Shown here: in pieces, positions 22,918-57,715 of the stretch | Position numbering within the stretch: the first letter of the stretch is position 1 | How the letters are laid out: each line of letters begins with the position of its first letter | Origin: Chloroflexota bacterium | GTDB taxonomy: Bacteria; Chloroflexota; Anaerolineae; CG2-30-64-16 | DNA length: 58,433 nt | Direction of reading: 5' to 3' | NCBI GenBank assembly: GCA_037445695.1 | Contig: JBBIKA010000003.1 | Span: forward strand, 1-58,433 | Position numbers and translations under genes: made by a program | The notes under the pieces: generated by a model | Database searches by the model: none | What the model was told of the DNA's origin: nothing | Seen by the model: only the letters and a program-made list of their open reading frames with translations

Positions 22918-22977
22918 GAATTTCCTCCTTGAGCCATGTGATCTCTGCCAAATCATCTCCAGTATCGCGCGGCCAAC

Positions 22978-23037
22978 TTAACCCCTGAATAAGGTCTCGT
23001 TAATATCCCGCGAAGGATCGGTTAAGATTTCTTTACC
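22978..23037. promoter_or_regulatory. Pho-box-like phased direct repeats (TTAAC / TTAAT / TTAAG at exact 22-bp spacing, weaker ATAAG / CGAAG / TTTAC at the 11-bp half-steps)
   Basis: TTAAC is at 22978, TTAAT at 23000 and TTAAG at 23022. The site lies in the 179-bp spacer between divergent pstS (start 22917) and the DapA-like gene (start 23097). Confidence 0.45.
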
Positions 23038-23096
23038 TCCGCATCGGCTTGACAAACTGACCCAATCATGATATGAGCTCGCCAGGAGGAATCGCC

Positions 23097-23996: not shown

Positions 23997-24166
23997 TTTT
24001 GGATTGCGCCGCCGCAGCGGCGCTTTGGGATTGCATTGACTGCGGTCGTGCGCGCAGAAAAGCGGCGACATATCGCCGCAATCCAAAGCGGCGACATATC
24101 GCCGCAATCCAAAGCGGCGACATATCGCCGCAATCCAAAGCGGCGACATATCGCCGCAGTCCAAAG
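23997..24166. repeat. Family-A repeat array: one inverted variant unit (TTTGGATTGC-GCCGCCGCAGCGGCGC-TTTGGGATTGC) plus four tandem 26-bp units GCGGCGACATATCGCCGCAATCCAAA
   Basis: Units are at 24062-24087, 24088-24113, 24114-24139 and 24140-24165 (the last carries A>G). Each unit holds a 7-bp stem GCGGCGA/TCGCCGC with loop CATA. There are no spacers between units. Confidence 0.9.
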
Positions 24167-24193
24167 TTGTGCTGGCAGGAACGGAGCTTTATC

Positions 24194-26470: not shown

Positions 26471-27456
26471 ATGTAACGTGGCAGGTGCTCTCGATAGTAC
26501 GCCAGCGTGCGCGCCAGGCCCTCGCGCAGGGGCACCGTGGGCCGCCAGCCCAGCGTCTCCCGGATCAGACGGTCGTCGGCGTAATAGTCGCCGATGTCAA
26601 TCCGCTTGCGTTCGGCCGGAAAGCTACGCACGACAAAGCGGCCGCCGCCGTTGACCTCGACCAGCAGACGGGCCAGCGCCTCCAGGCTGATCACCTCGAG
26701 GCCGCCCAGGTTGAAGGCGCGGCCGTCGGCGCGCGCATCGGCCGCGGCCAACAGCAGCGCTGTCACCGCGTCGTCTACATAGGTAAAGTCGCGCAACTGG
26801 CCGCCCTCCCACACCTCGAACGGCCGGCCTTCGATCAGCAGCCGAATCCAGATGCCCAGAAAGGTCTGACGCGCATCCTTCACGCGCATCCGCGGGCCAT
26901 AGGTATTCGTCAGACGCAGGGCTGCCGCGCGCAGGCCGTAGACATTGTTGTAGAGGATGTGATACCACTCGCCGGCCATCTTGTTGATGCCGTTGACATC
27001 CACCGGCCGCAACAGATGCCCTTCGTCCACCGGCAGGCGCTCCGGCTTGCCGTAGATCTGCCGCGTGCTGGCGAAAACGATCTTGATGCCGGGATTGTGC
27101 TTGCGACACGCCTCCAAGATGGAGAGCTGCGCCCGACAATTGATCTCCAGATCGGTGTACGGATCCCGCATCGAATCGAGATGGCTGGTCTGGCCGGCCA
27201 GGTTGAAGAGATAGTCCTGCCCCTGCACCAGATGAGCCATGCTATGTTCGTCGCGCACATCCGAGATGTTGACCCGCACCCGCTCCTCGAGGCCGGCGAT
27301 GTTGAACAGATTGCCGCCGTACTGGGGGATCAGGCTATCCACCAGGGTCACGCTCGCGCCCAGCTCGACCAGGCGCCGGGCCAGGTTCGATCCGATGAAG
27401 CCGAGCCCGCCGGTGATCAGCACGCGGTGGCCCGCGAAGACTTGCGTCAGTTCCAT
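26467..27456 (-). CDS. Extended short-chain dehydrogenase/reductase (NAD-dependent sugar epimerase/dehydratase family)
   Basis: [14 protein letters not shown] Rossmann motif; ...FASTRQIYG...[12 protein letters not shown]...TNTYGPRM. By eye the usual YxxxK reads NGINK. Confidence 0.85.
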
Positions 27457-27511
27457 GGCCCCTATCATACCAAAAGCCCGCCGTAAAGCGCAATTGTGCT
27501 TTCGATGACCA

Positions 27512-27595
27512 GGGGCCATCCCCGAATGAGACACGAATACACGAATGGCCCGTTGCGTGATTCGTGCATTCGTGGTCGGATTCGGGGATGGCCCT
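27512..27595. repeat. Family-D nested hairpin (outer GGCCATCCCCGAAT/ATTCGGGGATGGCC; inner CACGAATACACGAAT/ATTCGTGCATTCGTG)
   Basis: Outer stem is a perfect 14 bp (27514-27527/27580-27593). The inner arms match the 15-bp hairpin at 57861-57903. The element lies between divergent gene starts. Confidence 0.85.
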
Positions 27596-27664
27596 CTAGC
27601 CCGCCACCCAAAGTCATATTTAGAATTGCTGGTTCTTTCGCTCCTTTCGCGTTTTTATATTACA

Positions 27665-28585
27665 ATGACGGCCATGCAAAACTCGTGGAAGACCTGGGCC
27701 CAGGCCGGCGTGCTGCTCGTCGCCGCCGGGTTCCTGGCCGCGCTCGTCATCGGCCAATGGACCACGCTGCGGACGTATGACTGGCAGATCGAGCCGGGCT
27801 GGGCGCTCCTGGCGCTGCTCGGCCTGGAGCTCACCTGGCTGTTCGAGCTGGACACCTGGCGCATGATCCTGGCCGGACTGGGTGGCCCGTTGCCCTATCG
27901 CACGGCCGCGCCGATCTGGTTCCTCAGCAACATTGTGCGCTACATCCCGGGCAACGTCTGGCAGTTCTTGGGCATGGCCGAGCTGGCGCACGACGAGGGC
28001 GTGCCGCGGCTCATCACCCTGACGAGCATCGTATTGCATCAGGTCATCTCGACCGCGGTGGGAGTGGTGCTGGCGGCGTGCTACTTCGCGCTCTTCGACG
28101 ACGGCGAGTGGCTGCGCTATCTGCGGCCGCTGCTGCTGATCGTACCGTTCGGCCTGCTCCTGCTTCAGCCGCGGCTCCTCGACATCGCGCTCAATTGGCT
28201 GTTGCGGCGGATGGGCCGTCCGGCCGTGCAGGTGGCCCTTTCGGGGCACCAGATCTGGCTGCTGATCGGCCGTTACTTCGTCGTCTGGACGCTGATGGGG
28301 CTCAGCTTCGCGGCGCTGGTGCGCGGCCTGACGCCGACCGGATGGCCCGCCGCGGGGTACCTGGTGGCAGCCTGGGCGGCCGCCTACGTCATCGGCTATC
28401 TGACCCTGCTCACGCCGGCCGGATTGGGAGTGCGCGAGGGTGCGTTGGCGCTCCTGCTCCTGCCGATCGCGCCGGCGGGGGTCGCCGCGGTGATCGCGAT
28501 CGCAGCTCGGCTATGGATGGTGGCCGGCGAGGTGCTGGGCGCAGGCGCAGCGTTGATCGTGCGAGGGCGAATGTGGCGCAGATAG
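27665..28585 (+). CDS. Flippase-like polytopic membrane protein (lysylphosphatidylglycerol-synthase transmembrane-domain family)
   Basis: Eight or so hydrophobic segments. ...FLSNIVRYIPGNVWQFLGM... and ...TPAGLGVREGAL... are motifs typical of this family. Confidence 0.75.
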   Translation: MTAMQNSWKTWAQAGVLLVAAGFLAALVIGQWTTLRTYDWQIEPGWALLALLGLELTWLFELDTWRMILAGLGGPLPYRTAAPIWFLSNIVRYIPGNVWQFLGMAELAHDEGVPRLITLTSIVLHQVISTAVGVVLAACYFALFDDGEWLRYLRPLLLIVPFGLLLLQPRLLDIALNWLLRRMGRPAVQVALSGHQIWLLIGRYFVVWTLMGLSFAALVRGLTPTGWPAAGYLVAAWAAAYVIGYLTLLTPAGLGVREGALALLLLPIAPAGVAAVIAIAARLWMVAGEVLGAGAALIVRGRMWRR

Positions 28586-41972: not shown

Positions 41973-42734
41973 ATGTCTGCAAACGAACCGCTCAACGCGA
42001 AAGTTATCGTCGTCATCCCCACCTACAACGAAGCCGACAACCTGCCGGCGTTGATCGCCGAGCTGCGAGCGCTCGAGCTGTCCAATCTCTCGGTGCTGAT
42101 CGTGGACGACAACTCGCCCGACGGCACCGGTCAGGTGGCCGAAACATTGGCTCAGCGCCTGCCGGGCTTCGTTCAGGTGCGTCACCGGCCGGGCAAGGAA
42201 GGGCTTGGCCGGGCCTACCTGGAGGGCTTCGACATCGCCCTGCGCGCCGGAGCCGATTACATCATCCAGATGGATGCCGACTTCTCGCACCCGCCCGCAG
42301 TCATCCCTCAGATGTTGGCCCTGATGCCCGAATACGACGTGGTGGTCGGCTCGCGCTATGTCGAGGGGGGCGCGCTCGACGAGCGCTGGGGCTGGTGGCG
42401 ACGCTTCTTGAGCTGGTGGGCCAACGAGGTCTGGTCGCGGCTGTTCCTCGGCCTGCGCGTGCGCGATATCACCGCCGGCTTCAAGTGCTGGCGCCGACAG
42501 ACGCTGCTCGGCATCGGCCTGGGGCGGATCGGCTCGAACGGCTACGCGTTCCAGGTCGAGATGGCTTATTTGACCGAGCGCCTGGGCTATCGCGTCAAGG
42601 AAATACCGATCTACTTCGAGGATCGGCGCATCGGCAAATCGAAGATGAGCATGCGGGTGAAGTTCCAGGGCGCATGGGATGTCATTCGGATTCGCTGGCG
42701 CTACCGCGGCAAGATCGCCCGGGCCCAGGGCTAG
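41973..42734 (+). CDS. ppm1: Polyprenol-monophosphate mannose (or related sugar) synthase, GT2 (Ppm1/DPM1-like)
   Basis: [18 protein letters not shown]...[13 protein letters not shown]...[15 protein letters not shown]...[12 protein letters not shown]...[10 protein letters not shown]...DITAGFKCW.... Confidence 0.9.
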
Positions 42735-42744
42735 AGGATCGGAC

Positions 42745-45700
42745 GTGAAAGCGTCGCACAAATACGATCTGGCCATCGGGCTGGGGTTGCTGTTGCTGCC
42801 GCTGCTCTGGTTTTGGCCGCAGGTGTTCGGCGGCCGCACGCTCCTGCCGGCCGACAACCTGTATCAGTGGCAACCCTGGCAGAGCTACGCCGGACAGTTG
42901 GGCGTCGGTGCTCCCTATAACCCGCTGATCAGCGACCTGGTGCTGGAGAACCTGCCGTGGAAGACGTTCATCGTCGAACAGTTGCGGGCAGGCCGACCAG
43001 GCGACCTCCTGTGGAACCCGCGCGTGTTTGCCGGTGTGCCGTTTCTGGCGGCCGGCCAGCATTCGGCGCTCTATCCGTTCAGCCTGATCTTCTACATCCT
43101 CCCCCTGTGGCGCGCTTACGGTATCTTCTCCGCGCTGCAGCTCGGCCTGGCCGCCCTGGGGATGTTCATCTTTGCACGGGTGTTGGGCCAGCGCCGGGCC
43201 GGCGCGGCCATCGCGGCCATCGCCTACGCGTTCTCCGGCTTCTACATCGTCAGCGTCAATTTCACCATGATGATCGCGGCCGCGGCCTGGCTGCCGTACA
43301 TCCTGGCCATGATCGAGATCATCATCGCCAAGCAGGAGCAAAAGGGGGCCGTGGCCTATTCGCCCGTGCCCTACGTGGCCGCGGGCGCGCTCTTCCTGGG
43401 CGTCCAGGTGCTGGCCGGCCACGTGGAGATCACCTACTACGTGCTCCTGGTCAGCGCGCTGTTCGCCGCTTGGCGCCTGACCGCCGCGTGGCGACATCTG
43501 GGCACCTGGCGGCCGTTGCCCCGCCTCATCCTCTGGCTGGGCGTCATGGGCGGCCTGGGGCTGGCTCTGGGGGCGGTGCAACTGGTGCCGCTCTACGAAC
43601 TGGTGCGCCAGAGCTTCCGGGAGGGCGCAGCTTCGCTGGCGCAGGTGCGCGGGTGGGCATGGCCAAGCCGCCAGATCATCACCTTCCTCTTGCCCGATTT
43701 CTTCGGCAATCCGACCCATCATGCCTATTTCGACATCTGGCGCCGTACCTGGACGCCGGTGACGCAAAACGCGCTCGGCCAGCCGTTGCGCTCGATTGAT
43801 TGGGGAGTGAAGAATTACGTCGAGGGCGCCAACTATCTGGGCCTCCTGACGCTGGCGCTGGCCGGGGTGGCGTTGGCGGCGGCCGTTGCGGCGCGGCGCC
43901 AACGTCGCGTCCTCGGCCCTCGCATCTCCACCTTTACCGTCGCCGGCTTCTTCCTCCTGGCGCTGCTGGCGCTCCTCTTCGCGTTCGGAACGCCGCTGTA
44001 TGCCATTCCGTTCTACCTCCTGCCGGGCTTCAATCAGCTTCACTCCGCGTTTCGCTGGGTCTATCCCTATACGCTGAGCATGGCCGCGCTGGCCGGCTTC
44101 GGGATCAGCGCGCTGCTGGAGGCCCGCGAGGCCACGACCGGGCCGGCCGATTGCTTCACCGCGCAGGTCCGGCGCGCGGTCATGCGCACGGCCCGTCGGC
44201 TGGGGCTCGTCGGCCTGATCGCGGGCGCGGGCGCCCTGGCCGCCGTCGTGCTCAGCGTGTTCGTGCCGGCGCCCTTCGTGGCGCTCGGCGGCCGCATTCT
44301 GGCCGCATCCGACCTGGCCCGCTCGAACGGCTTCGCGGACGCGGCGATGGCCTGGAGCTACGAGGCCGGCGTGTTGGCGAAGTTCGGTGCCATGGCCGTC
44401 CTCACGGGGCTCGTGCTCTGGTGGGCCGGCCGCCAGCCGACGACTAAGCCGCTCCCGGCCGGGGGTGCCGCTCCCGCATCCGGCCGGCCGGCGCTCTGGC
44501 CGGCCGCCGCCTGCGCGGTGCTCGTGGCCGATCTGTGGCTTTTCGGCCACGCCTTCAACCCCGCGACCGACCCCCGGCTGCTGGAGTTCAAGCCGCCGGT
44601 GATCGCCTGGCTCCAGGCGCAACGTTCGACCGAACAACCCTGGCGGCTGACCAGCTTCGACGGCCCGGACGAAAAGACGCTCAACGCCAACTCGGCCATG
44701 ACCTACGGCCTGGAAGACGTGCGGGGCTACGATTCGATCATCCCCCGGCAGTACGTCGAGTACATGAAGCGGATCCATCCGCAGGGCGAGCTGCTCTACA
44801 ATCGGATCGCCGCGCTCTATACCCGGCTCGGCGACCGGGCCAACTACGACGTGCTCGACCATCCCCTGCTCCATCTGCTCGGCGTGCGCTACGTCGTCAC
44901 GACGCACACGATCCCCAATCCGGGCTACCGGCTGGCCTACGACGGAGAGGTGAAGGTCTTCGAGAACGAGCGGGCCTTCCCCCGCGCGTTCATTGCGGCG
45001 GAGGCCATCGCGGCGGCCGACCAGACGGCCGCGCTCGACGCGCTGTTGCGGGTGGATCCGGCGCGGGTGGTGGTGATCGAGGGGCTGGCGGCCGAGGCCT
45101 TGCCCGCGCCGGCGTCGCCGCAGTTGCGCCAGGCGCGCATCAGCCGCTATACCCCGCGCGAAGTCTTCGTGGACGTCAACCTGAGCGACCGCGGCTGGCT
45201 GGTGTTGACCGATAACTTCGCCGACGGCTGGAAGGCCTACCTGCGACCGTTCGGCGTCGCGGGCGAGGGGATCACGGCAAGCGGCGAGGCGGTGGAACAG
45301 CAACTGCCCATCTACCGCGCGGACGGCACGTTCCGGGCCGTATACATTCCGCAGGCCGGCCAGTGGACGGTGCGCTTCGTCTATTCCCCGCGCTCGGCGA
45401 TCCTGGGCCTTTACGGCAGCTTCCTGGCCGGCATCACGTTGATCTTGTTGCTCGGCTGGTGGGCCTGGGGCCGGCTTTACCGCGGGGACCGCAGCGAGGT
45501 GGGACGGGTGGCCAAGAACAGCGCGGTGCAGATGGCCACTGCGCTGATGGCGCGGGGGATTGATTTTGCGTTCGCCATGCTCCGGCTGCGCATCTTGAGC
45601 CCGGCCGGCGAAGGCGCTTACGCGTTCGCCATCACCTTCTATACCACCTTCGAGATCGTCACCCGTTTCGGGCTGGGGACCTTGCTGACGCGCGATGTGG

Positions 45701-47031
45701 CCAAGGATTGCGGCCAGGCCCGGCGCTATCTGTTCAATGTGATCGAGCTGCGCACGCTGCTCTGGCTGGCGAGCCTGCCGGTCATGGCGCTGGTGGTGCT
45801 GGCGTATCAGCGCGGGGGCCAGCTTGCACCGGGAACGGCCGAGACCATCGCCCTGTTCGTGGCCGCGCTCCTCTTCGCCAACATCGCGGACGCCATCAGC
45901 GCGGTCTTCTTCGCCTACGAGCAGATGGAACATCCGGCCGGCATTGCCACCGCCATCGCGGTCGCCAAGGTGGCGCTGGGCGCGCTGGTGCTCTTGCCGC
46001 CCTTCGAGTTCGGCTTCGTCGGCCTGGCCGGCGTGTCGCTGATCATGAACGTCGCCCAGGTGATCTGGCTCTACCTGGTGTTGCGGCGGACGGTGCTGCC
46101 GCGCGCGGTGCCATCGCCGGCCGGCGGGCTGTTGGCGCGCGCCCGCGAGCGGTTGACGCAGAAGGTCACAGCCTGGGATTGGACGTTGCAGCGTTACATG
46201 CTGGTCGAGTCCGGGCCGCTGATGATCAATCATCTGCTGGCGAGCGTGTTCTGGCGCATCAATCTGTACATCCTGCAATGGTTCGCCGGCGCGACCGCGG
46301 TGGGCATCTTCTCGGCCGCGGTCAAATATCTGGACGGCCTGAACGTCATCCCCAGCTATTTCACCCTGGCGATCTTTCCGCTGATGAGTCGCTATGCCCA
46401 GGGACAGAGCGATGCGCTGGCGCGTGCCTACCGGCTGGCCGCCCAACTGCTCTTCATCCTGGCGCTGCCGATCGCGGTCGCGTTCACCTTCCTGGCCACG
46501 CCGCTCATCCGCATCCTGGGCGGCGCGGCCTATCTGCCCGATTCGGCCATCGCGTTGCAGATCACGATCTGGTCCATCCCGATCGGCTGGGTGAATTCGG
46601 TGACGCAATACGTGCTGATCTCGGTCAACCAGCAGCGCTTTCTCACGCGGGCGTTCATCATCGGCGTGCTCTTCACCGGCCTCGCCAACCTGCTGCTCGT
46701 GCCGCGCTTCGGCTATCTCGCCTCGGCCGCGCTGCTCACGCCCGCGGAACTGGCGCTCTTTTTCCCGTTTGCGTGGGCCGTGCGCCGCCATGTGACGGCC
46801 ATGCCGTGGCTGCGCCTGGGGGGCGGGCCGCTGCTGGCGACCGCGGCCAACGCGGCCGTGGTCTGGAGCCTGGAATCGGCCGGCGTGCCGATCTTGTTGG
46901 CGCTGGCAGCCGGCCTGCTGGCGTATGGGGTCTTGCTGGGCGTGCTGGGCGTGTTCCGCGGGGGCGATTTCGCCGTGTTGACGGCGCGGCTCCCCCGGCC
47001 GCTGAGGTTCGCCGCCAAGCTGCGGCCATAA
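42745..47031 (+). CDS. Fusion protein: N-terminal YfhO-family GT-C glycosyltransferase (about 42745-45480) plus C-terminal Wzx/MOP-type oligosaccharide flippase (about 45500-47031)
   Basis: The N-part LLPADNLYQWQPW...NPLISDLVLENLPW...LWNPRVFAGVPFLAAGQHSALYP is a YfhO signature. The C-part VAKNSAVQMATALMARGIDFAFAMLRLRILSPAGEGAYAFA... with about 12 TM segments is typical of polysaccharide flippases. It is a single uninterrupted 1428-codon frame. GTG at 42745 lies 10 nt after the ppm1 stop. Confidence 0.8.
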   Translation: MKASHKYDLAIGLGLLLLPLLWFWPQVFGGRTLLPADNLYQWQPWQSYAGQLGVGAPYNPLISDLVLENLPWKTFIVEQLRAGRPGDLLWNPRVFAGVPFLAAGQHSALYPFSLIFYILPLWRAYGIFSALQLGLAALGMFIFARVLGQRRAGAAIAAIAYAFSGFYIVSVNFTMMIAAAAWLPYILAMIEIIIAKQEQKGAVAYSPVPYVAAGALFLGVQVLAGHVEITYYVLLVSALFAAWRLTAAWRHLGTWRPLPRLILWLGVMGGLGLALGAVQLVPLYELVRQSFREGAASLAQVRGWAWPSRQIITFLLPDFFGNPTHHAYFDIWRRTWTPVTQNALGQPLRSIDWGVKNYVEGANYLGLLTLALAGVALAAAVAARRQRRVLGPRISTFTVAGFFLLALLALLFAFGTPLYAIPFYLLPGFNQLHSAFRWVYPYTLSMAALAGFGISALLEAREATTGPADCFTAQVRRAVMRTARRLGLVGLIAGAGALAAVVLSVFVPAPFVALGGRILAASDLARSNGFADAAMAWSYEAGVLAKFGAMAVLTGLVLWWAGRQPTTKPLPAGGAAPASGRPALWPAAACAVLVADLWLFGHAFNPATDPRLLEFKPPVIAWLQAQRSTEQPWRLTSFDGPDEKTLNANSAMTYGLEDVRGYDSIIPRQYVEYMKRIHPQGELLYNRIAALYTRLGDRANYDVLDHPLLHLLGVRYVVTTHTIPNPGYRLAYDGEVKVFENERAFPRAFIAAEAIAAADQTAALDALLRVDPARVVVIEGLAAEALPAPASPQLRQARISRYTPREVFVDVNLSDRGWLVLTDNFADGWKAYLRPFGVAGEGITASGEAVEQQLPIYRADGTFRAVYIPQAGQWTVRFVYSPRSAILGLYGSFLAGITLILLLGWWAWGRLYRGDRSEVGRVAKNSAVQMATALMARGIDFAFAMLRLRILSPAGEGAYAFAITFYTTFEIVTRFGLGTLLTRDVAKDCGQARRYLFNVIELRTLLWLASLPVMALVVLAYQRGGQLAPGTAETIALFVAALLFANIADAISAVFFAYEQMEHPAGIATAIAVAKVALGALVLLPPFEFGFVGLAGVSLIMNVAQVIWLYLVLRRTVLPRAVPSPAGGLLARARERLTQKVTAWDWTLQRYMLVESGPLMINHLLASVFWRINLYILQWFAGATAVGIFSAAVKYLDGLNVIPSYFTLAIFPLMSRYAQGQSDALARAYRLAAQLLFILALPIAVAFTFLATPLIRILGGAAYLPDSAIALQITIWSIPIGWVNSVTQYVLISVNQQRFLTRAFIIGVLFTGLANLLLVPRFGYLASAALLTPAELALFFPFAWAVRRHVTAMPWLRLGGGPLLATAANAAVVWSLESAGVPILLALAAGLLAYGVLLGVLGVFRGGDFAVLTARLPRPLRFAAKLRP

Positions 47032-47175
47032 CCGCGACGGCCGCAACGACGCACGGACAGTGAACTTGCCGTCCGACGTTAAGGCCATGCCCGACGTTCC
47101 CGGCATCTCTGCGGTGAGCCGGCCGGTTGCACGAGCAGCCCACCCGCCAAAGTGCAAACAGAGGAGGAGGTTAAC

Positions 47176-49395
47176 ATGCGCATCGGTATCATCACCAGCG
47201 GCGGTGATGCGCCGGGCATGAATGCCGCGATCCGGGCGGTCACGCGCTGCGCGCTCGACATCGGCATGGAGGTGATCGGCATCCACGAGGGCTGGCAGGG
47301 GGTGATCGAAGGGGGCGCCCGGTTCGAGCCGTTCAACTGGCGCAGCGCCGGCGGCATCCTCCAGTGGGGCGGCACGATCCTCGGCACCGCGCGCTCCGAA
47401 GCGTTCCGCACGGTCGCCGGCCGCCGCCAGGCGGCCCGCAACCTGGTACTGGCCGGCATTGACGGCATGGTGGTGGTAGGCGGCGACGGCTCGCTGACGG
47501 GCGCGCTGCTCCTCCACCAGGAGTGGCCGGAGCACCTGAAGGCGCTGGCGGCCGAAGGCGCGATTCCGGCTGAAAAGGCACAAGACCCGGCCCCGTTTCG
47601 CATCGTCGGCTTGCCCGGTTCCATAGACAACGACCAGTACGGCACCGACATGAGCATCGGCGCGGACACCGCGCTCAACACCATCGTCGAGGCCGTGGAC
47701 AAGCTCAGTTCCACGGCCGATTCGCACCAGCGCACCTTTGTGGTCGAGGTCATGGGCCGGCGTTGCGGCTACCTGGCCCTGATGAGCGCCCTGGCCACCG
47801 GCGCCGACTGGGTGCTGATTCCAGAGGAAGAGCTGGATCCGCGCTGGCACTATCGCATGGTAGATGCGCTCAAGCGCGGCCGCGCGGCCGGCCGACGCCA
47901 CGATCTGATCATCTTTGCCGAGGGCGCGCGGCACAGCGACGGCCTGCCGATCCGCGCCGAGACGATCACCGAGATCCTAAAGACGCGCATGGGGGTCGAA
48001 GGCCGCGTGACCGTGCTGGGCCATGTGCAGCGGGGCGGCTCGCCTACCGCGTTCGAGCGCGTGCTGGCGTCGCGGCTGGGCGAGGCGGCGGTAGAGTATC
48101 TGGCCGGCCCCGACCCTACGCCGGTGATGATCGGCCTGGTCGCCAATCAGCCGAAGGCGACGCCGCTGACCGAGGTGGTGGCCAAGAGCCAGGAGGTCAA
48201 CGCGCAGATGGACCTGGGCCAGTTCGAGGAGGCCCTGAAACTGCGCGGGCCCAGCTTCTTGGACACCCTTGACCTGGTCAAGACCTTGAGCCGGGCCGAG
48301 CCGAAGGAGGCGCTCCTGGATCGCGGCCGGGTGTGCCTGCTGACGGGCGGGCCCGACGCGCCGGGGATGAACGCCATCCTGCGCACGGCCCTGCGCATCG
48401 CCCGCAACGCCGGCCAGGATGTGATCGGCGCGCGCTACGGCTTCGGAGGCCTGGCCAGGGGCGACATGGTGCATCTGGGCTGGATGGACGTGCAGAACTG
48501 GATGGGCCTGGGCGGATCGGAGCTGGGCGCGGTGCGCCACGAGCTGACGGCCGACGAGATCCCGGCCATCGCGCGCACGGTCAGGGAATGGGACATCCGG
48601 GGGTTGATCGCCGTAGGCGGGCTGGAGACCTACGGCACAGTGGGCCGGCTGCTGGAAGCCCGCAACCGCCATCCGGAGTTGCGCATCCCCATTATCTGCG
48701 TGCCGGCCACCATCGGCAACAACCTGCCGGGCACCGAGTTCACCATCGGCGCGGACACCGCCCTGAACAACATCGTGGATGCGGTAGACAAGATCAAATA
48801 CACGGCGAGCGCGGCGCGGCGGGTGTACATCATCGAAGTGATGGGCCGACGCTGCGGCTATCTGGCGCTCACCGCGGGCATCGCCACCGGCGCGGAGATG
48901 GAACTGTTGCCCGAGGACGGCATCGCGCTCGAAGACCTGTTGCACGATACTGAGCTCTTGCGCCGCGGGTTCGACAGCGGCAAAAAGCTGGGCATCGTGA
49001 TCATCGCCGAAGACGCGTCGCCTTACTACGATACCGATTTCGTGCGGCGGGTCATTGATGCCGAGGCCCGCGGCGCGTTCGAGGTGCGCGTGTGCATCCT
49101 GGGCCATCTCCAGCGGGGGGGCGTGCCGACTGCGTTCGACCGCATCCAGGGCGCCCGGCTGGGCGCGCGGGCCGCGCAGCAGATCATGGACGACATCGCG
49201 GCCGGCCGGGATCAGGTCAATGTCATCGGCCTGGCACAACGCGGCATCCGCATCACCCCCTATGCGGAAGCCATGGCAAGCATGGACCTGGCCAACGGCC
49301 GGCCGCGGGAGCAGATGTTCCTCGGCTGGCGGCACCTGGCCGATAAACTGGCGCGGCCCGGCCCTGGGTGTATTGACAAACAACGGGATTTTTGA
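47176..49395 (+). CDS. pfk: Tandem-duplicated (eukaryote-type, ~740 aa) ATP-dependent 6-phosphofructokinase
   Basis: The N-half has SGGDAPGMN, GGDGS, PGSIDND and MGRRCGYLAL. The linker reads FEEALKLRGPSF. The C-half has degenerate motifs GGPDAPGMN, VGGLETY, PATIGNN and MGRRCGYLAL. GAGGAGGAGG RBS is present. Confidence 0.9.
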   Translation: MRIGIITSGGDAPGMNAAIRAVTRCALDIGMEVIGIHEGWQGVIEGGARFEPFNWRSAGGILQWGGTILGTARSEAFRTVAGRRQAARNLVLAGIDGMVVVGGDGSLTGALLLHQEWPEHLKALAAEGAIPAEKAQDPAPFRIVGLPGSIDNDQYGTDMSIGADTALNTIVEAVDKLSSTADSHQRTFVVEVMGRRCGYLALMSALATGADWVLIPEEELDPRWHYRMVDALKRGRAAGRRHDLIIFAEGARHSDGLPIRAETITEILKTRMGVEGRVTVLGHVQRGGSPTAFERVLASRLGEAAVEYLAGPDPTPVMIGLVANQPKATPLTEVVAKSQEVNAQMDLGQFEEALKLRGPSFLDTLDLVKTLSRAEPKEALLDRGRVCLLTGGPDAPGMNAILRTALRIARNAGQDVIGARYGFGGLARGDMVHLGWMDVQNWMGLGGSELGAVRHELTADEIPAIARTVREWDIRGLIAVGGLETYGTVGRLLEARNRHPELRIPIICVPATIGNNLPGTEFTIGADTALNNIVDAVDKIKYTASAARRVYIIEVMGRRCGYLALTAGIATGAEMELLPEDGIALEDLLHDTELLRRGFDSGKKLGIVIIAEDASPYYDTDFVRRVIDAEARGAFEVRVCILGHLQRGGVPTAFDRIQGARLGARAAQQIMDDIAAGRDQVNVIGLAQRGIRITPYAEAMASMDLANGRPREQMFLGWRHLADKLARPGPGCIDKQRDF

Positions 49396-49401
49396 TATAA
49401 G
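49373..49401 (+). promoter_or_regulatory. Near-consensus sigma-70 promoter candidate TTGACA-17 nt-TATAAG straddling the pfk stop codon
   Basis: TTGACA is at 49373-49378 and TATAAG at 49396-49401. It would give a leader of about 250 nt for the sugar ABC operon (start 49654). Confidence 0.4.
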
Positions 49402-49653
49402 GGATTTATACGATGACGGCCATGTCATGCTGTGCGTACATCCCCTTTGCGACCGCAATCCCTGGACGCCGTGCGCCGGATGTCGCTTGAGCGGTCGCAT
49501 TGCCCGACCGGAGAAAGGAGGCGAGGCCTGGAGGAGAGGTAAAAAACCGATCAGCCCAAAAACGATTCTGGAAGCAGCCGCCACTTCGGGCGGTTCGGAG
49601 ACAGGCGCTTTTCGATTTGTTTCTCTCACACGGTGAAAGGAGATTCTTTCGCA

Positions 49654-50991
49654 ATGAAGCAGCTCAATCGTCGTGAATTTCTCAAGTTCGGCGCGCTGGT
49701 CGCCGGCGGTGCAGCGCTGGCAAGCTGCGCGCCCGCCGCCCCCGCGCCGCAACAGCCGGCAGAGGCACCCAAGGCGACCGAAGCCCCCAAGGCCGCGGCC
49801 CCGGCAGCCGGCGCGCAAAAGCTGGAGATCTTCTCCTGGTGGACCTCCGGCGGCGAGATCGAAGCCCTCAACGGCCTGTTCGAAGTCTACAAGAAGCGCT
49901 ACCCCGGCGTTGAGATCGTCAACGCGGCGCTGGCCGGCGGCACCTCGTCGGGCGGCAACATGAAGGCCGTGCTCCAGACCCGCATGATGGGCGGCGATCC
50001 GCCCGAATCGTTCCAGGTGCACCTGGGCGGCGAGCTGATCGGCACCTACGTGAAGGCCGGCCAGATGGAGCCGCTGGACTTCCTCTACAAGGAAGAGGGC
50101 TGGGACAAGGTCTTCCCGGCCGAGCTGATCGAGATCGCCTCGTACGAGGGCAAGCCCTGGTCGGTGCCGGTGAACATCCATCGCTCCAACATGATGTGGT
50201 ACAATAAGAAGATGTTGGCCGATGTCGGCGCGGAACCGCCCAAGACCTGGGACGAGTGGTTCGTGTTGGCCGAGAAGCTCAAGGCCAAGGGACAACCGAC
50301 CCTGGCCATCGCCGAGAGCGGCGCCGGCTTCACGGCCCACGTCTTCGAGACGATGATGATCCCCGTGCTCGGCCCGGAAGATTTCAAGGGCCTCTTCACC
50401 GGCAAGACCTCGTGGGAAGACAAGCGCATCGCCACCGCGCTGGAGATCCTCAAGAAGGCGCTCGACTACGCCAACGCAGACTTCCTCAACGTGAGCTGGG
50501 GCGACGTAAACCAGCTCATGGTGGCGGGCAAGGTCGCTATGATCATCCAGGGCGACTGGACGCCGGGCGTGCTCTGGTCGCTGAAGTTCCAGGACTTCGG
50601 CTGGGCGCCGGCCCCAGGCAACGAAGGCATCTACCAGATGCTTTCCGACTCCTTCGGCCTGCCCAAGAAGGTCAAGAACCGCGAGGCGGCGATCAACTGG
50701 CTGCGGGTGTGCGGCTCGAAGGAAGGGCAGGATGCCTTCAACCCGGCCAAGGGTTCGATCCCGGCCCGCACGGACGCCGACATCACCAAGTACAGCGAGT
50801 ATCACAAGTGGGCGATGGAGCACTGGAAGAAGGACAAGCTGGTGCCCAGCATCGTCCACGGCGCCGCGGCCCCGGTCAGCTTCATGACCGATTTCATGAA
50901 CGCCATCAACGTCTTTGCCACGAAGAAGAACGTTGAAGAGACGCAGGCCGCGCTGGTCAAGGCTGCCAAGGATGCCGGTTTCCAGAAGTAA
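49654..50991 (+). CDS. CUT1-family sugar ABC transporter substrate-binding protein (Tat/lipoprotein signal)
   Basis: MKQLNRREFLKFGALVAGGAALASC plus an A/P-rich linker and family-1 SBP features (...EIFSWWTSGGE...). Confidence 0.9.
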   Translation: MKQLNRREFLKFGALVAGGAALASCAPAAPAPQQPAEAPKATEAPKAAAPAAGAQKLEIFSWWTSGGEIEALNGLFEVYKKRYPGVEIVNAALAGGTSSGGNMKAVLQTRMMGGDPPESFQVHLGGELIGTYVKAGQMEPLDFLYKEEGWDKVFPAELIEIASYEGKPWSVPVNIHRSNMMWYNKKMLADVGAEPPKTWDEWFVLAEKLKAKGQPTLAIAESGAGFTAHVFETMMIPVLGPEDFKGLFTGKTSWEDKRIATALEILKKALDYANADFLNVSWGDVNQLMVAGKVAMIIQGDWTPGVLWSLKFQDFGWAPAPGNEGIYQMLSDSFGLPKKVKNREAAINWLRVCGSKEGQDAFNPAKGSIPARTDADITKYSEYHKWAMEHWKKDKLVPSIVHGAAAPVSFMTDFMNAINVFATKKNVEETQAALVKAAKDAGFQK

Positions 50992-52773: not shown

Positions 52774-53742
52774 ATGGATCATAGCCAACTCGACCTGTTC
52801 CCCCCAGGCCGCCCAGGACGTGGGACGGCCGGCGAAAGAACGCGGCCGGTTGCGGCGCTGCCGACCGACCTGACCGCCGATTCCTCGTTGACGGCCGCCA
52901 TGACCGGCTTTCACGGCTACATGGTGCGCCAGGGCTTTTCCGATAACACGATCAAGTCCTTCCTGGCCGATCTGAACCTCTTCGGCCGCTATATCTCGCC
53001 CAACCGGCCCATCGGCCAGATCGGCCAGGCCGACGTGGAACAGTTCCTGGTCTGGATGCGCGTGGAGCGGGGGGTGCCGTGCAGCCCGAAGACGTATGCT
53101 CGGCGCCTCACGACCCTCAAGGTGTTTTTCGGCTGGCTGGCCGAAGCCCAAGTCTTGCCCAGCGACCCGGCCGCCGGCATCCCCCACGAGCAGCCCACCA
53201 CGCCCCTCCCCGAGATCCTGTACGACGAGCAGGTCAATGCGCTGCTGAACACGGCGCGCGATCTGCTATGGGCGCCCAAGCCCGACGCGCGGCCCTACCT
53301 GTTGGTCACCCTGCTCTTGCAGACGGGGATCAAAAAGAGCGAGTGCATGGAGATCAAGCTGGAGCACATTGACCTGTCGAACCCGCAGGCGCCCGTGCTC
53401 TACGTGCGCTACGCCGATCCGCGCCGGACGCTGAAGGAGCGCAAGCTGGCGTTGGGGCCCAACTTCACGCCGGCCTATCGGCAATACCTGCGCGAGTACG
53501 AGCCGAAGGAGTATCTCTTCGAATGCACGGCGCGCAACCTGGAGTACGTGTTGACCGATCTGGCGGCCATGGCGGGGATCGCGGGGGGTGTTTCGTTCGA
53601 ACAGTTGCGCTGGACGTGCGCCGTGCGGGACTACCGCAACGGCATGCCGGCCGACCGCCTGCGCGAAAAGCTCGGCCTCTCGCTGATCAGTTGGCGCGAG
53701 ACCCTGCCGAAAATCCAGAAGCTCGCGCGGCCGGCGCTATAG
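52774..53742 (+). CDS. Tyrosine-recombinase (XerC/D)-like protein with a degenerate active site
   Basis: SAM-like N-domain (...FLADLNLFGRYI...DVEQFLVWM...KTYARRLTTLKVFFGWL). The catalytic-domain scaffold is present, but by eye TGIKKSE replaces TGxRxSE, EQLRWTCAV replaces HxLRHTxAT, and LGLSLISWRETLPKIQKL has no Tyr nucleophile. Confidence 0.7.
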   Translation: MDHSQLDLFPPGRPGRGTAGERTRPVAALPTDLTADSSLTAAMTGFHGYMVRQGFSDNTIKSFLADLNLFGRYISPNRPIGQIGQADVEQFLVWMRVERGVPCSPKTYARRLTTLKVFFGWLAEAQVLPSDPAAGIPHEQPTTPLPEILYDEQVNALLNTARDLLWAPKPDARPYLLVTLLLQTGIKKSECMEIKLEHIDLSNPQAPVLYVRYADPRRTLKERKLALGPNFTPAYRQYLREYEPKEYLFECTARNLEYVLTDLAAMAGIAGGVSFEQLRWTCAVRDYRNGMPADRLREKLGLSLISWRETLPKIQKLARPAL

Positions 53743-53745
53743 CCT

Positions 53746-55110
53746 CTATTGCCCCTTGGTGAACAGCGGCAACAACTGCTGAAGCAGCGCCTGGTACTCC
53801 TCGTTGTTATCCAGATAGCTGCCGCCCCAGCCGCCGAGCGCATAGATCTTGTTGCCCAGGGCCACGACGCCCAGATTGCGCCACTGTCCGGCGATCGGCG
53901 TCTCGATCTGCGACCAGGCGTCGGCGGTCGCATCGTACTGCTCGTTGAAGCTGAGCGCTTCCGTCCAGCCGCCGCCGATGGCATACAGCCGCGCGCCCAG
54001 CGTCACCAGCCCCAGGCCCCCGCGCGGCCGGTTCAGCGCGGCGCGCGGTGACCACGGCCCCGCGGGCGTCCCCTCGGCCGCCGGGTCGTAGACCAGCACA
54101 TCGGCCAGCTCGCGCCGGCCATCGAACCCGCCGACCACGTAGATGCGGCCCTTCAGGGCGCTCGCCGCGTGAAAGCCGCGCGGCCCGGGCATGGCCAACC
54201 CGCTCGACCAGCGATCGCTCGCCGGATCGTAGATCAGCGTATCCGCGCGCCAGCGCGCGCCGTCCCATCCGCCGAAAAGATAGAGCCGGCCCTCCAGCGC
54301 CGCGGCCGCGTAGGCCGCCAGGGGGAAGGGAAGCCCCGCGCGCACCGCCCAGACGTCGGCCTGCGGGTCGTACACCTCCAGCACGTCGGTGCTCCGGCCA
54401 TCGGCGAGCGTGCCGCCGGCCACATAGAAGCGGCCGCCGATCCGGACGGCCGCGATGTTGGCCACCGCGGTCGGCTTGGCCGCGGCCGGCCGCCAGAGAT
54501 TGGCCGAGCGGTCGTAAACCAGCACCTGATCGGTGAGCCCGCCGGCCGTCTCACCGGCGATCACGTACAGGCGCACGTCATCGGTCGCCACGGCCATCCG
54601 GCTGCGCGCCGCAGGCAGGGGCGCTCTGACGATCCACCGCGAGGTCGTATTGCGCGTGACGGTTCCGCCCTGCACCCGGCCGCTGTCGCTGAACGGCGTC
54701 GCGTGGCCGTCCCGGCCGGGCACCTGCCACCAGGCCGACGCCAACAAGCCCACCGCGATCAGCCCGGCCACGAGCACCATGTAAATCCGCTGCCATGTCG
54801 CCAGCGGCGGCCTCCCCAGCGGCTCCTCGGCCGGCTCAACGATCGCCTCGGCCGGCGGAGGGGTCGCTTCGCCGGCGCCGACCGTCGGCAGCTCGCCGCC
54901 GACGGTCACCCAGCCCCGACGCACGGCCTCCATCGTCGCCTCGGTGCGCGATTGAACGCCCAGCTTCTCGAAAATGTTGCGCAGATGGACCTTGACCGTG
55001 TTGGGACTGATCACCAGCTCGCGCGCGATCTGCTGGTTGGTCTTGCCATCGGCCACCAGCTTCAACACCTCGATTTCGCGCTCGCTCAACGGACCGAGAT
55101 CGTCGGACAT
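53746..55110 (-). CDS. Membrane-anchored LuxR-family HTH regulator with an extracytoplasmic six-blade Kelch beta-propeller
   Basis: LSEREIEVLKLVADGKTNQQIARELVISPNTVKVHLRNIFEKLGV (LuxR HTH), a single TM IYMVLVAGLIAVGLLASAWW, then six Kelch-like blades (...RLYVIAG..., RFYVAGG, RLYLFGG, RIYVVGG, RLYAIGG, KIYALGG). Confidence 0.85.
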   Translation of the reverse strand: MSDDLGPLSEREIEVLKLVADGKTNQQIARELVISPNTVKVHLRNIFEKLGVQSRTEATMEAVRRGWVTVGGELPTVGAGEATPPPAEAIVEPAEEPLGRPPLATWQRIYMVLVAGLIAVGLLASAWWQVPGRDGHATPFSDSGRVQGGTVTRNTTSRWIVRAPLPAARSRMAVATDDVRLYVIAGETAGGLTDQVLVYDRSANLWRPAAAKPTAVANIAAVRIGGRFYVAGGTLADGRSTDVLEVYDPQADVWAVRAGLPFPLAAYAAAALEGRLYLFGGWDGARWRADTLIYDPASDRWSSGLAMPGPRGFHAASALKGRIYVVGGFDGRRELADVLVYDPAAEGTPAGPWSPRAALNRPRGGLGLVTLGARLYAIGGGWTEALSFNEQYDATADAWSQIETPIAGQWRNLGVVALGNKIYALGGWGGSYLDNNEEYQALLQQLLPLFTKGQ

Positions 55111-55156: not shown

Positions 55157-57715
55157 TCATGGGGCCCATTTGAGGAGCGGGAGGACGAACGGGACGGGCA
55201 AGGCCGGATGATGCGGCCGGACGCGCACGCCGTAGCGCACCGCGCCCTGCTCCACCGGGCCGAGCACGGCCTGGTAACGATACTCGCCGTTCGTGCCGGA
55301 CATCAGCTCCATCGGCACGACGCGGGTCGGCGCGAGATGACCGTCGCGTTCGACCCCGTAGACCAGCTCGACCGCCAGAAACTCGGGGGGCAGCGGCCCC
55401 GGCCGCACGAGGGCGCGCACGGTCACGGCTTCGTCGCCCCTGGCCTCTGCGACCGGCCGGCCGGCCACTTCCGCCGCAAACGCCTCGACGGCCACCTGCG
55501 GCCAGGCGGCCCGCACCTGCTGCTCCCAGAGGGCCAGTTCGTGCGCCAGCGCGCCGGCCTCGCTCTGCTGGCCGAAGCGGCCGGCCGGAAAGTAGTAACG
55601 GTTGCAGTATTCCTTCAACATGCGGGCCAGGCTGAAGACCGGCGCTATCGTCTGGATCGCCCGGCGCATCTTCTTCAGCCAGCCGTGGGGGATGCCGTCC
55701 GGGCCGCGGTCGTAGAAGAGCGGCACGATCTCGTTCTCGAGCGTGTCGTAGAGCGAGAGCGCGTCGGCCGCGTCTTGCGCGGCCTCGTCGGGATAGTCGC
55801 CGTCCTGGCCGATGGCCCAGCCGTTGGTGCCGTCATACCCCTCGCACCACCAGCCGTCCAGGACGCTGAAGTTGGGGATGCCGTTCAGGCCGGCCTTCTG
55901 GCCGCTCGTGCCGCTGGCCTCGTTCGGCCGGCGAGGGTTGTTCAGCCAGAGGTCTACGCCCGTGACCAGATGCCGCGCGATGTTGGCGTCGTACTCCTCA
56001 ACGAACAGGATGCGGCCGGCGAAGCCCGGCTGATGGCTGAGCTGGTAGATCTGCTGGATGAACGCCTTGCCCGGCTCGTCGGCCGGATGGGCCTTGCCCG
56101 CGAAGATGATCTGAACCGGCCGTTCGGGATCGTTCAGGATGCGCTTGAGGCGCTCGGGATCGCGGAAGATCAGGGTGGCCCGCTTGTAGGTGGCGAAGCG
56201 CCGCGCGAAGCCGATGGTGAGGGCGCGCGGATCGAGCCCGCGCGCGGCCACCGCCACCTCGACCGGCGTGGCGCCCGTGCGGGTGAGCTGACGCGCGGTG
56301 CGGCGACGCATGAGCTCGAGCATCTGGTTGCGCGCGCGGGTGTGCTGCGCCCACAGCTCGGCATCGGGGATGCGCTCGACCGCGGCCCAGGTGGTCGGGT
56401 CATCTATGGCCGTGCGCCAGCCGAAATCGAGATAGCGATCGAACAGCGCGGCCAGCTCGGGATGCAACCAGGTCTCGGTGTGCACGCCGTTGGTGATGTG
56501 GCCGATGGGCACTTCATCTACGGGCACATCGGGCCACAAGCTGCGCCACATGCGCCGGGCCACTGCGCCGTGCAGCTTGCTGACGCCGTTGGCGTAGGCG
56601 GCCGTGCGCAGCGCCAGGACGGTCATGCTGAACTGCGGCCCCCACGGATTCTGGAAGCGCCCCAGGTCGAGGAACCGTTCGCGATCGAGCCCCAGCCGGG
56701 GCCAGAAATCGGCGAAGAAGCGCTCCATCAGATCGAAGTTGAAGGCATCGTTGCCGGCCGGCACGGGCGTGTGGGTGGTGAAGAGCGCGTTGCCGCGCAC
56801 GGCCCACAGCGCCTCGGCGAAAGGCATCTTCTGCTCTTCGACGTATTCCCGCAGGCGCTCCAACTGGAGGAAGGCGGCGTGCCCCTCGTTCATGTGCCAG
56901 ACGTCGGGCCGGTAGCCGAGCGCGCGCAGCGCGCGCACGCCGCCGATGCCCAACACCACCTCCTGCGAGATGCGGATCTGCACATCGCCGCCGTAAAGCC
57001 GGGCCGATAGCTCGCGGTCGGCCGGCGCGTTGCGCTCCACATCGGTGTCCATCAGGAAGACCGGCACCCGGCCGACCTGGATGCGCCACACGCGGGCGTA
57101 GACGGTGCGGCCGGGCAGCTCCACGCTGATCATCACCTCGCGGCCGGCCGGATCCGTGGCCGGTCGCACCGGCACCTCGCCGAAATCCAGCTTCTCGTAG
57201 ATCGCCTCCTGGCGGCCGTTGGCGTCAATCTGCTGGCGAAAATAGCCTTGCGGATAGATGAAGCCGACGCCGACGAACGGCAGGCCCAGGTCGCTGGCCT
57301 CTTTGCAATGATCGCCGGCCAGGATGCCCAGGCCGCCGGAATAGATCGGCAGCGACTCGTGGAGGCCGAACTCGGCCGAGAAGTAGGCGATGGTGCGCAC
57401 GCCGGGCTGGGCGGTCTGAGAGGCATACCAGGTGCGCACCGGCCGCATGTAGGTGTCGAACGCATCCATGACGGCCGTGTAGCGCGTCCGATAGGCGCGG
57501 TCTTGCGCGGCCCGTTCCACCCGGGATTGGCCGACCCGACGCAAGAACTTCACAGGGTTATGATTGACCGCCTCCCAGAGCTCGGGGTCTATGTCGCGAT
57601 ACAGCGCCTGGGCGTGCGGGTTCCAGCTCCACCACAGGTTATAGGCCAGCTCGGCCAACCGTTCGATCGGTTGCGGCAAGCGCGCCACGATCGAGAGCAA
57701 ACCTGACAAGGTCAT
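55157..57715 (-). CDS. glgP: Alpha-glucan (glycogen/maltodextrin) phosphorylase, GT35
   Basis: ...LAYNLWWSWN...AYFSAEFG...LPIYSGGLGILAGDH... and the PLP region ...SGTSGQKAGLNG.... 852 aa. Confidence 0.95.
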   Translation of the reverse strand: MTLSGLLSIVARLPQPIERLAELAYNLWWSWNPHAQALYRDIDPELWEAVNHNPVKFLRRVGQSRVERAAQDRAYRTRYTAVMDAFDTYMRPVRTWYASQTAQPGVRTIAYFSAEFGLHESLPIYSGGLGILAGDHCKEASDLGLPFVGVGFIYPQGYFRQQIDANGRQEAIYEKLDFGEVPVRPATDPAGREVMISVELPGRTVYARVWRIQVGRVPVFLMDTDVERNAPADRELSARLYGGDVQIRISQEVVLGIGGVRALRALGYRPDVWHMNEGHAAFLQLERLREYVEEQKMPFAEALWAVRGNALFTTHTPVPAGNDAFNFDLMERFFADFWPRLGLDRERFLDLGRFQNPWGPQFSMTVLALRTAAYANGVSKLHGAVARRMWRSLWPDVPVDEVPIGHITNGVHTETWLHPELAALFDRYLDFGWRTAIDDPTTWAAVERIPDAELWAQHTRARNQMLELMRRRTARQLTRTGATPVEVAVAARGLDPRALTIGFARRFATYKRATLIFRDPERLKRILNDPERPVQIIFAGKAHPADEPGKAFIQQIYQLSHQPGFAGRILFVEEYDANIARHLVTGVDLWLNNPRRPNEASGTSGQKAGLNGIPNFSVLDGWWCEGYDGTNGWAIGQDGDYPDEAAQDAADALSLYDTLENEIVPLFYDRGPDGIPHGWLKKMRRAIQTIAPVFSLARMLKEYCNRYYFPAGRFGQQSEAGALAHELALWEQQVRAAWPQVAVEAFAAEVAGRPVAEARGDEAVTVRALVRPGPLPPEFLAVELVYGVERDGHLAPTRVVPMELMSGTNGEYRYQAVLGPVEQGAVRYGVRVRPHHPALPVPFVLPLLKWAP

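Follow-up and report, generated by a model that had tools for sequence, protein, structure and literature searches.

Is the doubled phosphofructokinase (PFK) of eukaryotes, PFK-1, a design of their own making, or does it descend from a form that bacteria still carry? In textbooks, the tandem duplication of PFK is treated as a eukaryotic innovation. The question is raised by a gene for a tandem ATP-dependent 6-phosphofructokinase of 739 amino acids (aa), hereafter the query, found in a stretch of 58,433 nucleotides of Chloroflexota DNA (assembly GCA_037445695.1, contig JBBIKA010000003.1), the whole of which is referred to as the window. A preliminary description of this DNA had recognized in the gene the layout of the eukaryotic enzyme, and had left the choice between a bacterial enzyme related to the eukaryotic PFK-1 ancestor and a horizontal transfer. 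The trees, the approximately unbiased (AU) tests and the shared insertions and deletions reported here show that eukaryotic PFK-1 nests within the bacterial tandem enzymes. In a 2025 review of the PFK superfamily, the tandem duplication and the extra regulatory sites are presented as a eukaryotic innovation (PMC12203962), and the article text of Santana-Molina et al. 2025 (PMC11976288) derives eukaryotic PFKA from an unidentified prokaryote that was neither the alphaproteobacterial nor the Asgard partner. No biochemical study or explicit description of bacterial tandem PFKs was found in the published literature, and no description of them was found in the text, as far as it was available, of PMC12203962, PMC11976288 (together with its preprint, without the supplement), PMC11345425 and PMC12525153.

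Family Assignment and Predicted Fold

Two PF00365 domains were detected in the query by Pfam, at residues 2–308 (E = 1.4e-104) and at about 385–670 (E = 1.4e-84). The model of the eukaryotic tandem enzyme, TIGR02478 ('6PF1K_euk'), scored 803.2 bits against a curated cut-off of 708.4 and was matched over positions 2–740 of 744, and human PFKL proved collinear with the query from end to end (query residues 3–726 with PFKL 18–752, E = 1.6e-188), bearing out the proposal of a 739-aa eukaryote-type tandem layout in a bacterium. The inter-half segment was also collinear with the animal enzyme, as the preliminary description had stated, with FEEALKLRGPSF aligning with FDEATQLRGGSF of PFKL. On the single-domain PfkA model (TIGR02482), the two halves scored 338 and 230 bits, both under the cut-off of 371 bits; with two domains and no full-length single match to TIGR02482, the query falls outside the single-domain PfkAs. 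It also falls outside the pyrophosphate (PPi)-dependent PFKs, whose signature is Asp104 together with Lys124 (GGDD..., PKT.DND), the N-half having the Gly104 and Gly124 of the ATP type. Functional residues here and below are numbered as in E. coli PfkA (annotated K-12 record), the crystallographic number being equal to the zero-based index, as was checked.

The closest solved structures to the query were those of human PFKL, PFKP and PFKM. An AlphaFold2 model obtained from an alignment of 38 sequences reached a predicted local distance difference test (pLDDT) value of 91.9 and a predicted template modelling (TM) score (pTM) of 0.91, and it superposed on 4u1r, 8w2g and 7lw1 with TM scores of 0.95–0.96 and root-mean-square deviations of 1.5–1.8 Å over about 738 columns. 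The two halves are predicted to be placed relative to each other as in human PFK-1, and single-domain bacterial PFK structures superposed on one half only of the predicted chain. By its sequence, residues, predicted fold and orthology, the query is a eukaryote-type tandem PFK-1 (TIGR02478/IPR009161). Both of its halves place it stem-wards of, and not within, the crown clade to which all the characterized eukaryotic enzymes belong.

Phylogeny of the Two Halves

About 90 full tandem proteins were retrieved in an exhaustive search among representatives clustered at 50% identity; they were split at the domain boundaries and analyzed together with single-domain PfkAs, five of them from the query's own class. 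The eukaryotic rows comprised human PFKL and PFKP (taken from PDB alignments), Choanoeca, Amphiamblys, Flabellula, Cavenderia, Pristionchus, Balamuthia and Thecamonas, along with two fungal rows, one recognized by its best PDB match, Pichia PFK, and the other (P0151) by clustering and an N-terminal extension of about 200 aa. FastTree (152 rows) and IQ-TREE under LG+C20 with posterior mean site frequencies (PMSF; 87 rows × 345 columns) were used to construct the trees, in which the halves root each other, and the two topologies agreed.

In the paralog-rooted tree, the N-half of the query grouped with the N-half of eukaryotic PFK-1 and its C-half with the C-half, and the same branching order was obtained for both halves, with the protein P0129 branching first, followed by the query clade with the Desulfacinum-like protein P0122, and then by a crown composed of a second bacterial form and the eukaryotes. 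The query's clade, which covers one Anaerolineae family, Thermomicrobiales and Desulfacinum, is referred to as type 1 and the bacterial form of the crown as type 2; on TIGR02478, type-2 proteins reach about 1000 bits where the query reaches about 800, and they are 48–49% identical to it. Support for the crown clade of type-2 bacteria and all eukaryotes was 100/99 among the N-halves and among the C-halves, the query clade was supported at 100/98 among the C-halves, and all 11 named eukaryotes were placed in one subclade (94/94 for the C-halves and 91/94 for the N-halves). The single-domain PfkAs of Anaerolineae fell with ordinary PfkA, apart from the tandem halves.

The half-by-half phylogeny, which the preliminary description had proposed as a check, did not bring the two halves together, and the AU test rejected a tree in which the N- and C-halves of the query clade are sisters (log-likelihood difference, ΔlnL, 178; p = 7.7e-5). 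A single clade of the named bacteria without the eukaryotes was rejected as well, with both halves constrained (ΔlnL 100, p = 0.002), with the N-half alone (ΔlnL 63, p = 0.009) and with the C-half alone (ΔlnL 32, p = 0.007). Between the two origins first envisaged, the position of the query below the crown in both halves favors a bacterial enzyme akin to the eukaryotic PFK-1 ancestor, and the rejection of bacterial monophyly disfavors a horizontal transfer from eukaryotes.

The branching order of the trees is supported by rare changes in the linker, the inserts and residue 252. All the tandem forms, P0129 included, share the linker and a C-terminal RP.EQ-W.L motif. A 24-aa insert in the N-half was observed in type 1, type 2 and all the eukaryotes, and is absent from P0129 and from single-domain PfkA; at the matching site of the C-half, a 7-aa insert occurs in type 1, type 2 and the eukaryotes, and not in P0129 or the single-domain enzymes. 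C-half His8, the loss of D12 and R252Q are found only in type 2 and eukaryotes.

Conservation of Active-Site and Effector-Site Residues

The N-half keeps the full set of ATP, Mg and fructose 6-phosphate (F6P) residues of E. coli PfkA, namely G11, R72, D103, G104, S105, G124, D127 and D129, and on the F6P side R162, M169, R171, E222, R243, H249 and R252. All the N-half motifs that had been quoted as intact were located, with SGGDAPGMN at residues 8–16, GGDGS at 102–106, PGSIDND at 147–153 and SHQRTFVVEVMGRRCGYLAL at 183–202. The C-half, checked on a proper alignment, is without G11, D103, G124, D127 and D129; the substitutions in the query are G11P, D103L, G104E, S105T, G124A, D127G and D129N, with positions 104–105, which hmmalign misplaced, taken from MAFFT alignments. 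Retained in the same half are R72, R162, M169, R171, E222, R243, H249 and R252, and also the basic residues of the old ADP/phosphoenolpyruvate (PEP) effector site, R21, R25, K154 and K213.

Across the type-1 clade, the C-half has lost G11, D103 and D129 in 76/76 members, with Pro at position 11 in every one of them and a consensus of L/M/I at position 103. The seven C-half sugar-phosphate ligands were conserved at 89–100% among these 76 C-halves, while the adjacent catalytic residues had drifted. The preliminary description held that the C-half had degenerated at the same positions as in animals, with the catalytic Asp lost. This is right for the query's own GGLET (residues 481–485) and PATIGNN (510–516), but it does not extend to the history of Asp127, which is kept (PATIDNN) in 66/76 of the type-1 relatives and replaced as D127G in only 7/76. 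Because 66/76 close relatives keep the Asp, its loss in the query is recent and lineage-specific, with no shared descent with the animal loss. The likeness to animals is further limited by R171 and R252, which the query retains and eukaryotes have lost. In general, type-1 C-halves keep R171, R252, D12 and mostly D127, states that eukaryotes have lost, and position 252 is Arg in all type-1 proteins and Gln in 116/120 type-2 bacteria and 11/11 eukaryotes. In the effector site, a shared change puts Trp in the place of Arg54, in the N-half as in the C-half, of type 1, type 2, P0129 and almost all the eukaryotes sampled.

Distribution of Tandem Phosphofructokinases in Bacteria

In Chloroflexota, tandem PFKs are no rarity. 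The taxonomic distribution, whose examination had been suggested along with the half-by-half trees, revealed them in 31/301 Chloroflexota genomes sampled, with all 30 tandem genes outside the query's genome being of type 2, and in 2/151 Acidobacteriota genomes sampled. Type 2 abounds in Anaerolineae and Kouleothrix, and it includes an Arcanobacterium protein (RefSeq WP_073996619) and that of an Acidobacteriota metagenome-assembled genome (MAG; L026). Both types occur together in some genomes of the query's family. Database records of bacterial tandem proteins already exist and are named just 6-phosphofructokinase.

Type 1 is present in about 22/24 of the sampled genomes of the query's own family. 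Proteins of about 735 aa that are 69–100% identical to the query are abundant in Anaerolineae metagenomes, the nearest named records being uncultured Anaerolineae MAGs with identities of ≤97%, and relatives at 52–59% identity were obtained from other Anaerolineae, Thermomicrobiales and Desulfacinum/Desulfosoma. A gene for a YfhO/flippase protein lies directly upstream of the tandem gene (pfk) in 18/20 type-1 loci of named genomes (L009–L028). This conserved synteny, and a divergence of the YfhO/flippase gene that tracks that of pfk, indicate that the type-1 gene has been vertically inherited in the query's Anaerolineae family, where it is a long-resident gene and no recent eukaryotic import.

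Several bacterial tandem PFKs do not have the 24-aa insert in the N-half, namely P0198, P0209/P0237/P0252, P0189/P0212/P0218 and P0177 (Lewinellaceae). In P0198, the two halves group as sisters (100/100), which points to a recent duplication of its own, and the others may represent additional independent or deeper fusions. In one relative, on contig C186 of genome G011, a tandem pfk (22770–24944) is accompanied by a single-domain pfkA (27040–27945) about 2 kb downstream.

Evolutionary and Functional Interpretation

The explanation that we consider quite probable as a whole is that the query combines a catalytic N-half with a ligand-binding C-half and derives from a fusion shared with eukaryotic PFK-1, type 1 having diverged early. 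According to the trees, the AU tests and the shared insertions and deletions, the query, the type-2 bacterial tandem enzymes and eukaryotic PFK-1 go back to one duplication-fusion, and type 1 split off earlier than the separation of type 2 from the eukaryotes. Because of this early divergence, the tandem design is older than its appearance in eukaryotes and most likely bacterial in origin. In the predicted PFK-1 fold, the N-half would be catalytic, and the C-half would be catalytically disabled with an intact sugar-phosphate pocket. By homology with the solved eukaryotic PFK-1 structures, the enzyme is probably a tetramer, in which the active sites would be completed across the N–N′ contacts by R162 and R243 of the neighboring N-half, and the intrachain N/C interface would carry two descendants of the bacterial ADP/PEP effector site. 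The C-half pocket may serve as an allosteric sugar-phosphate site, with fructose 1,6-bisphosphate (F1,6BP) or F6P as the likeliest ligand. Fructose 2,6-bisphosphate (F2,6BP) is an improbable one, since no 6-phosphofructo-2-kinase (PF01591, 6PF2K) was found in the host genome, which is 99% complete.

A wider proposal, towards which we lean, is that tandem PFK-1 is a bacterial invention with Chloroflexota as a main reservoir, that a type-2-like donor passed it to eukaryotes, and that type 1 is a living intermediate. If so, type 1 would stand between a duplicated active site and an allosteric site, the Mg-ATP binding of its C-half being gone, yet with R171, R252, D12 and mostly Asp127 remaining, and the classic Poorman–Kemp scenario for the PFK effector sites would become testable stepwise with natural proteins.

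Several points weigh against the main explanation. The topology alone would equally be produced by two successive transfers from the eukaryotic stem lineage, and a separate test of bacterial monophyly on the C-half only gave p = 0.07. The constrained IQ-TREE searches were stopped at about 120–150 iterations, with likelihoods stable since 70–90; 10 tandem proteins (20 half rows) in the tree have no organism label, the eukaryotes sampled are Amorphea only, and the C-halves are fast-evolving, with several rows of deviant composition. Residual C-half chemistry is conceivable in the relatives, most of which keep Asp127, and the activity, oligomeric state and effectors of type 1 are all inferred by homology.

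The reverse history, in which the tandem gene was born in (stem) eukaryotes and acquired from them by Anaerolineae, seems improbable to us. The best PDB and model matches of the query are indeed eukaryotic, tandem PFKs are patchy across the bacterial phyla, as the counts for Chloroflexota and Acidobacteriota given above illustrate, and two separate early transfers from the stem lineage would mimic the topology. However, paralog rooting nests the eukaryotes inside the bacterial tandem PFKs and not the reverse, bacterial monophyly is rejected, and the query clade keeps C-half R252, R171, D12 and mostly D127, which all eukaryotes have lost. The existence of a deeper tandem form without the N-half insert, P0129, also speaks against such a transfer, as do the conserved bacterial synteny, the Shine-Dalgarno sequence and the host-like guanine-cytosine (GC) content. 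Hardly credible is a convergent origin, in which a local pfkA of Chloroflexota would have been duplicated and fused independently and would merely resemble the eukaryotic layout: independent tandem duplications do exist, as seen from P0198 and the other forms without the N-half insert, but the joined query halves are rejected by the AU test, eukaryotic PFK-1 has the same linker, C-terminal motif and two half-specific inserts, and the Anaerolineae single-domain PfkAs group with ordinary PfkA.

As regards function, the retention of the F6P pocket and R72 in the C-half, together with Asp127 in most of the clade relatives, might suggest a double kinase in which both halves are catalytic. We regard this as very unlikely in view of the seven C-half substitutions of the query and of the loss of D103, G11 and D129 in 76/76, which removes the Mg-ATP ligands of E. 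coli PfkA. We also consider it unlikely that the C-half is an inert scaffold whose pocket is a relic serving dimer or tetramer contacts, with no allostery. Ligand binding by this half is a prediction from sequence, R162 and R243 lie at subunit interfaces as well, and the host genome has no gene for F2,6BP synthesis, all of which would agree with a scaffold. Against it, the strong conservation of the seven ligands amid catalytic drift argues for selection on binding, and the text of PMC11345425 reports that the homologous C-half pocket of human PFKL binds F1,6BP.

A catalytic N-half joined to a binding C-half is thus the reading that we prefer, and the value of the finding, which we regard as moderate, is evolutionary, in that the query represents the PFK-1 design at a bacterial stage that branched off early. 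Fused PFKs are common among bacteria, and the clade to which the query belongs branched earlier and has a regulatory half that is less degenerate. Cultured sources exist in Desulfacinum infernum DSM 9756 (type 1) and Arcanobacterium (type 2), and the two types let experimenters ask how a catalytic site turned allosteric. They would also help to find which signals such an enzyme responds to in an organism that makes no F2,6BP and has a PPi-dependent PFK besides.

Gene Model, Genomic Context and Host Metabolism

The open reading frame (ORF) of pfk is intact, and its start codon is supported by the homologues, whose N-terminus is likewise MRIGI.... The ribosome-binding site of pfk, GGAGGAGG, lies 6 nt 5′ of the ATG. 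A scan of positions 46900–49750 for promoters and terminators revealed nothing above shuffled expectation on the pfk strand. The features of the gene and its surroundings are collected in Table 1.

Table 1. Features of the tandem phosphofructokinase gene, its neighbors and related loci (window coordinates unless a contig or locus is named).
Feature	Position	Strand	Residues	Basis or remark
Tandem ATP-dependent 6-phosphofructokinase gene	47176..49395	+	739 aa + stop	ORF; ATG at 47176, stop codon ends at 49395
Shine-Dalgarno sequence AGAGGAGGAGG	47160..47170	+		Read from sequence; 5–6 nt before ATG
N-half (catalytic PFK domain and linker)	47176..48285	+	1–370	PfkA residue conservation
24-aa N-half insert EWPEHLKALAAEGAIPAEKAQDPA after GGDGS	47521..47592	+	116–139	Alignment
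PGSIDND (Gly124 of ATP type, catalytic base Asp127, Mg ligand Asp129)	47614..47634	+	Asp127 = residue 151	
Inter-half linker motif FEEALKLRGPSF	48223..48258	+	350–361	Aligned with PFKL FDEATQLRGGSF
C-half, degenerate (pseudo-enzyme) PFK domain, presumed regulatory	48328..49353	+	~385–726	PF00365, residue table, MAFFT
GGPDAPGMN (ATP loop altered)	48346..48372	+	Gly11 equivalent = Pro393	Alignment, residue table
GGLET replacing GGDGS (D103L, G104E, S105T; Mg-ATP site lost)	48616..48630	+		Alignments
PATIGNN replacing PG(S/T)IDND (G124A, D127G, D129N)	48703..48723	+		Alignment, residue table
EVRVCILGHLQRGG, C-half R243/H249/R252 equivalents kept (sugar-phosphate pocket)	49081..49122	+		Residue table, alignment
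C-terminal motif RPREQMFLGW (PFKL: MPREQWWLSL)	49300..49329	+		Alignment; common to eukaryotic C-halves
YfhO-like membrane protein fused to C-terminal Polysacc_synt flippase, upstream of pfk	42679..47031	+	1450 aa	
Tyrosine integrase	52774..53742	+		
LuxR/GerE helix-turn-helix–Kelch beta-propeller fusion	53746..55110	-		
Alpha-glucan phosphorylase (DUF3417)	55157..57715	-		
Two other host PFK genes	G000:C31:11997-12962 (L004); G000:C23:4364-5353 (L003)			Asp104/Lys124 signature
Type-2 loci in the sample of the query's family	L005–L008; G007, G012, G015, G022			

Downstream of pfk come the genes of a sugar ATP-binding cassette (ABC) transporter, a binding protein with two permeases. The integrase that follows the permeases adjoins the LuxR-Kelch fusion, and the alpha-glucan phosphorylase also lies on this side. 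The GC content is uniform across the window at about 0.67, and that of pfk equals that of the host. Contamination or a chimeric assembly was considered and rejected on the basis of this uniform GC and of the recurrence of the same gene and upstream neighbor in >18 independent MAGs.

The host genome carries two further PFK-family genes, both with GGDDT and PKT(M/I)DND, of which one is a PPi-PFK equivalog (NF041103, 597 bits against a cut-off of 550) and the remaining one is group-III-like. Because both bear the Asp104/Lys124 signature, the tandem gene is the sole predicted ATP-type PFK of the host genome. The coexistence with a PPi-PFK suggests a possible division of labor between a regulated, irreversible enzyme and a reversible, unregulated one.

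Comparison with Known Phosphofructokinases

The mammalian PFK-1 enzymes (PFKL 7lw1/8w2g, PFKP 4u1r/4xyj, PFKM 4omt and rabbit 3o8l) are 42–44% identical to the query and collinear with it, and share with it a chain of about 740 aa, two PFK domains, the linker, the N-half insert and the RP.EQ-W.L motif. Like the query, they have a catalytic N-half and a C-half without D103, G104, G124, D127 and D129, in which R162, R243, H249 and E222 are kept. However, their C-half R171, R252, D12 and M169 are changed, whereas the query keeps all four. The query ends in a tail of 13 aa, against an autoinhibitory one of about 28 aa in PFKL, and the F2,6BP control of the mammalian enzymes is not expected in a host without 6-phosphofructo-2-kinase. 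The yeast enzymes (S. cerevisiae 3o8o and K. pastoris 3opy, alpha/beta) match the query over the tandem core with E values of 1e-143 to 1e-156 and TM scores of 0.91–0.94, but are extended at the N-terminus by a glyoxalase-like domain of about 200 aa and assemble into hetero-octamers (PMC12203962), while the query is without this domain and no octamer is attributed to it.

Among bacteria, the type-2 tandem enzymes resemble the query in their length of about 745 aa, two-domain layout, linker and N-half insert, and differ from it in the eukaryote-like Q252, W103 and loss of D12 of the C-half, and in being much more widespread. The single-domain PfkAs (E. coli 1pfk, G. stearothermophilus 3pfk/6pfk; TIGR02482) assemble into homotetramers whose four active sites are equivalent, as are their four effector sites. 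These enzymes are 38–44% identical to each half of the query and share the fold and the catalytic residues of its N-half, but unlike the query they are 320 aa long, with neither the linker nor the 24-aa insert.

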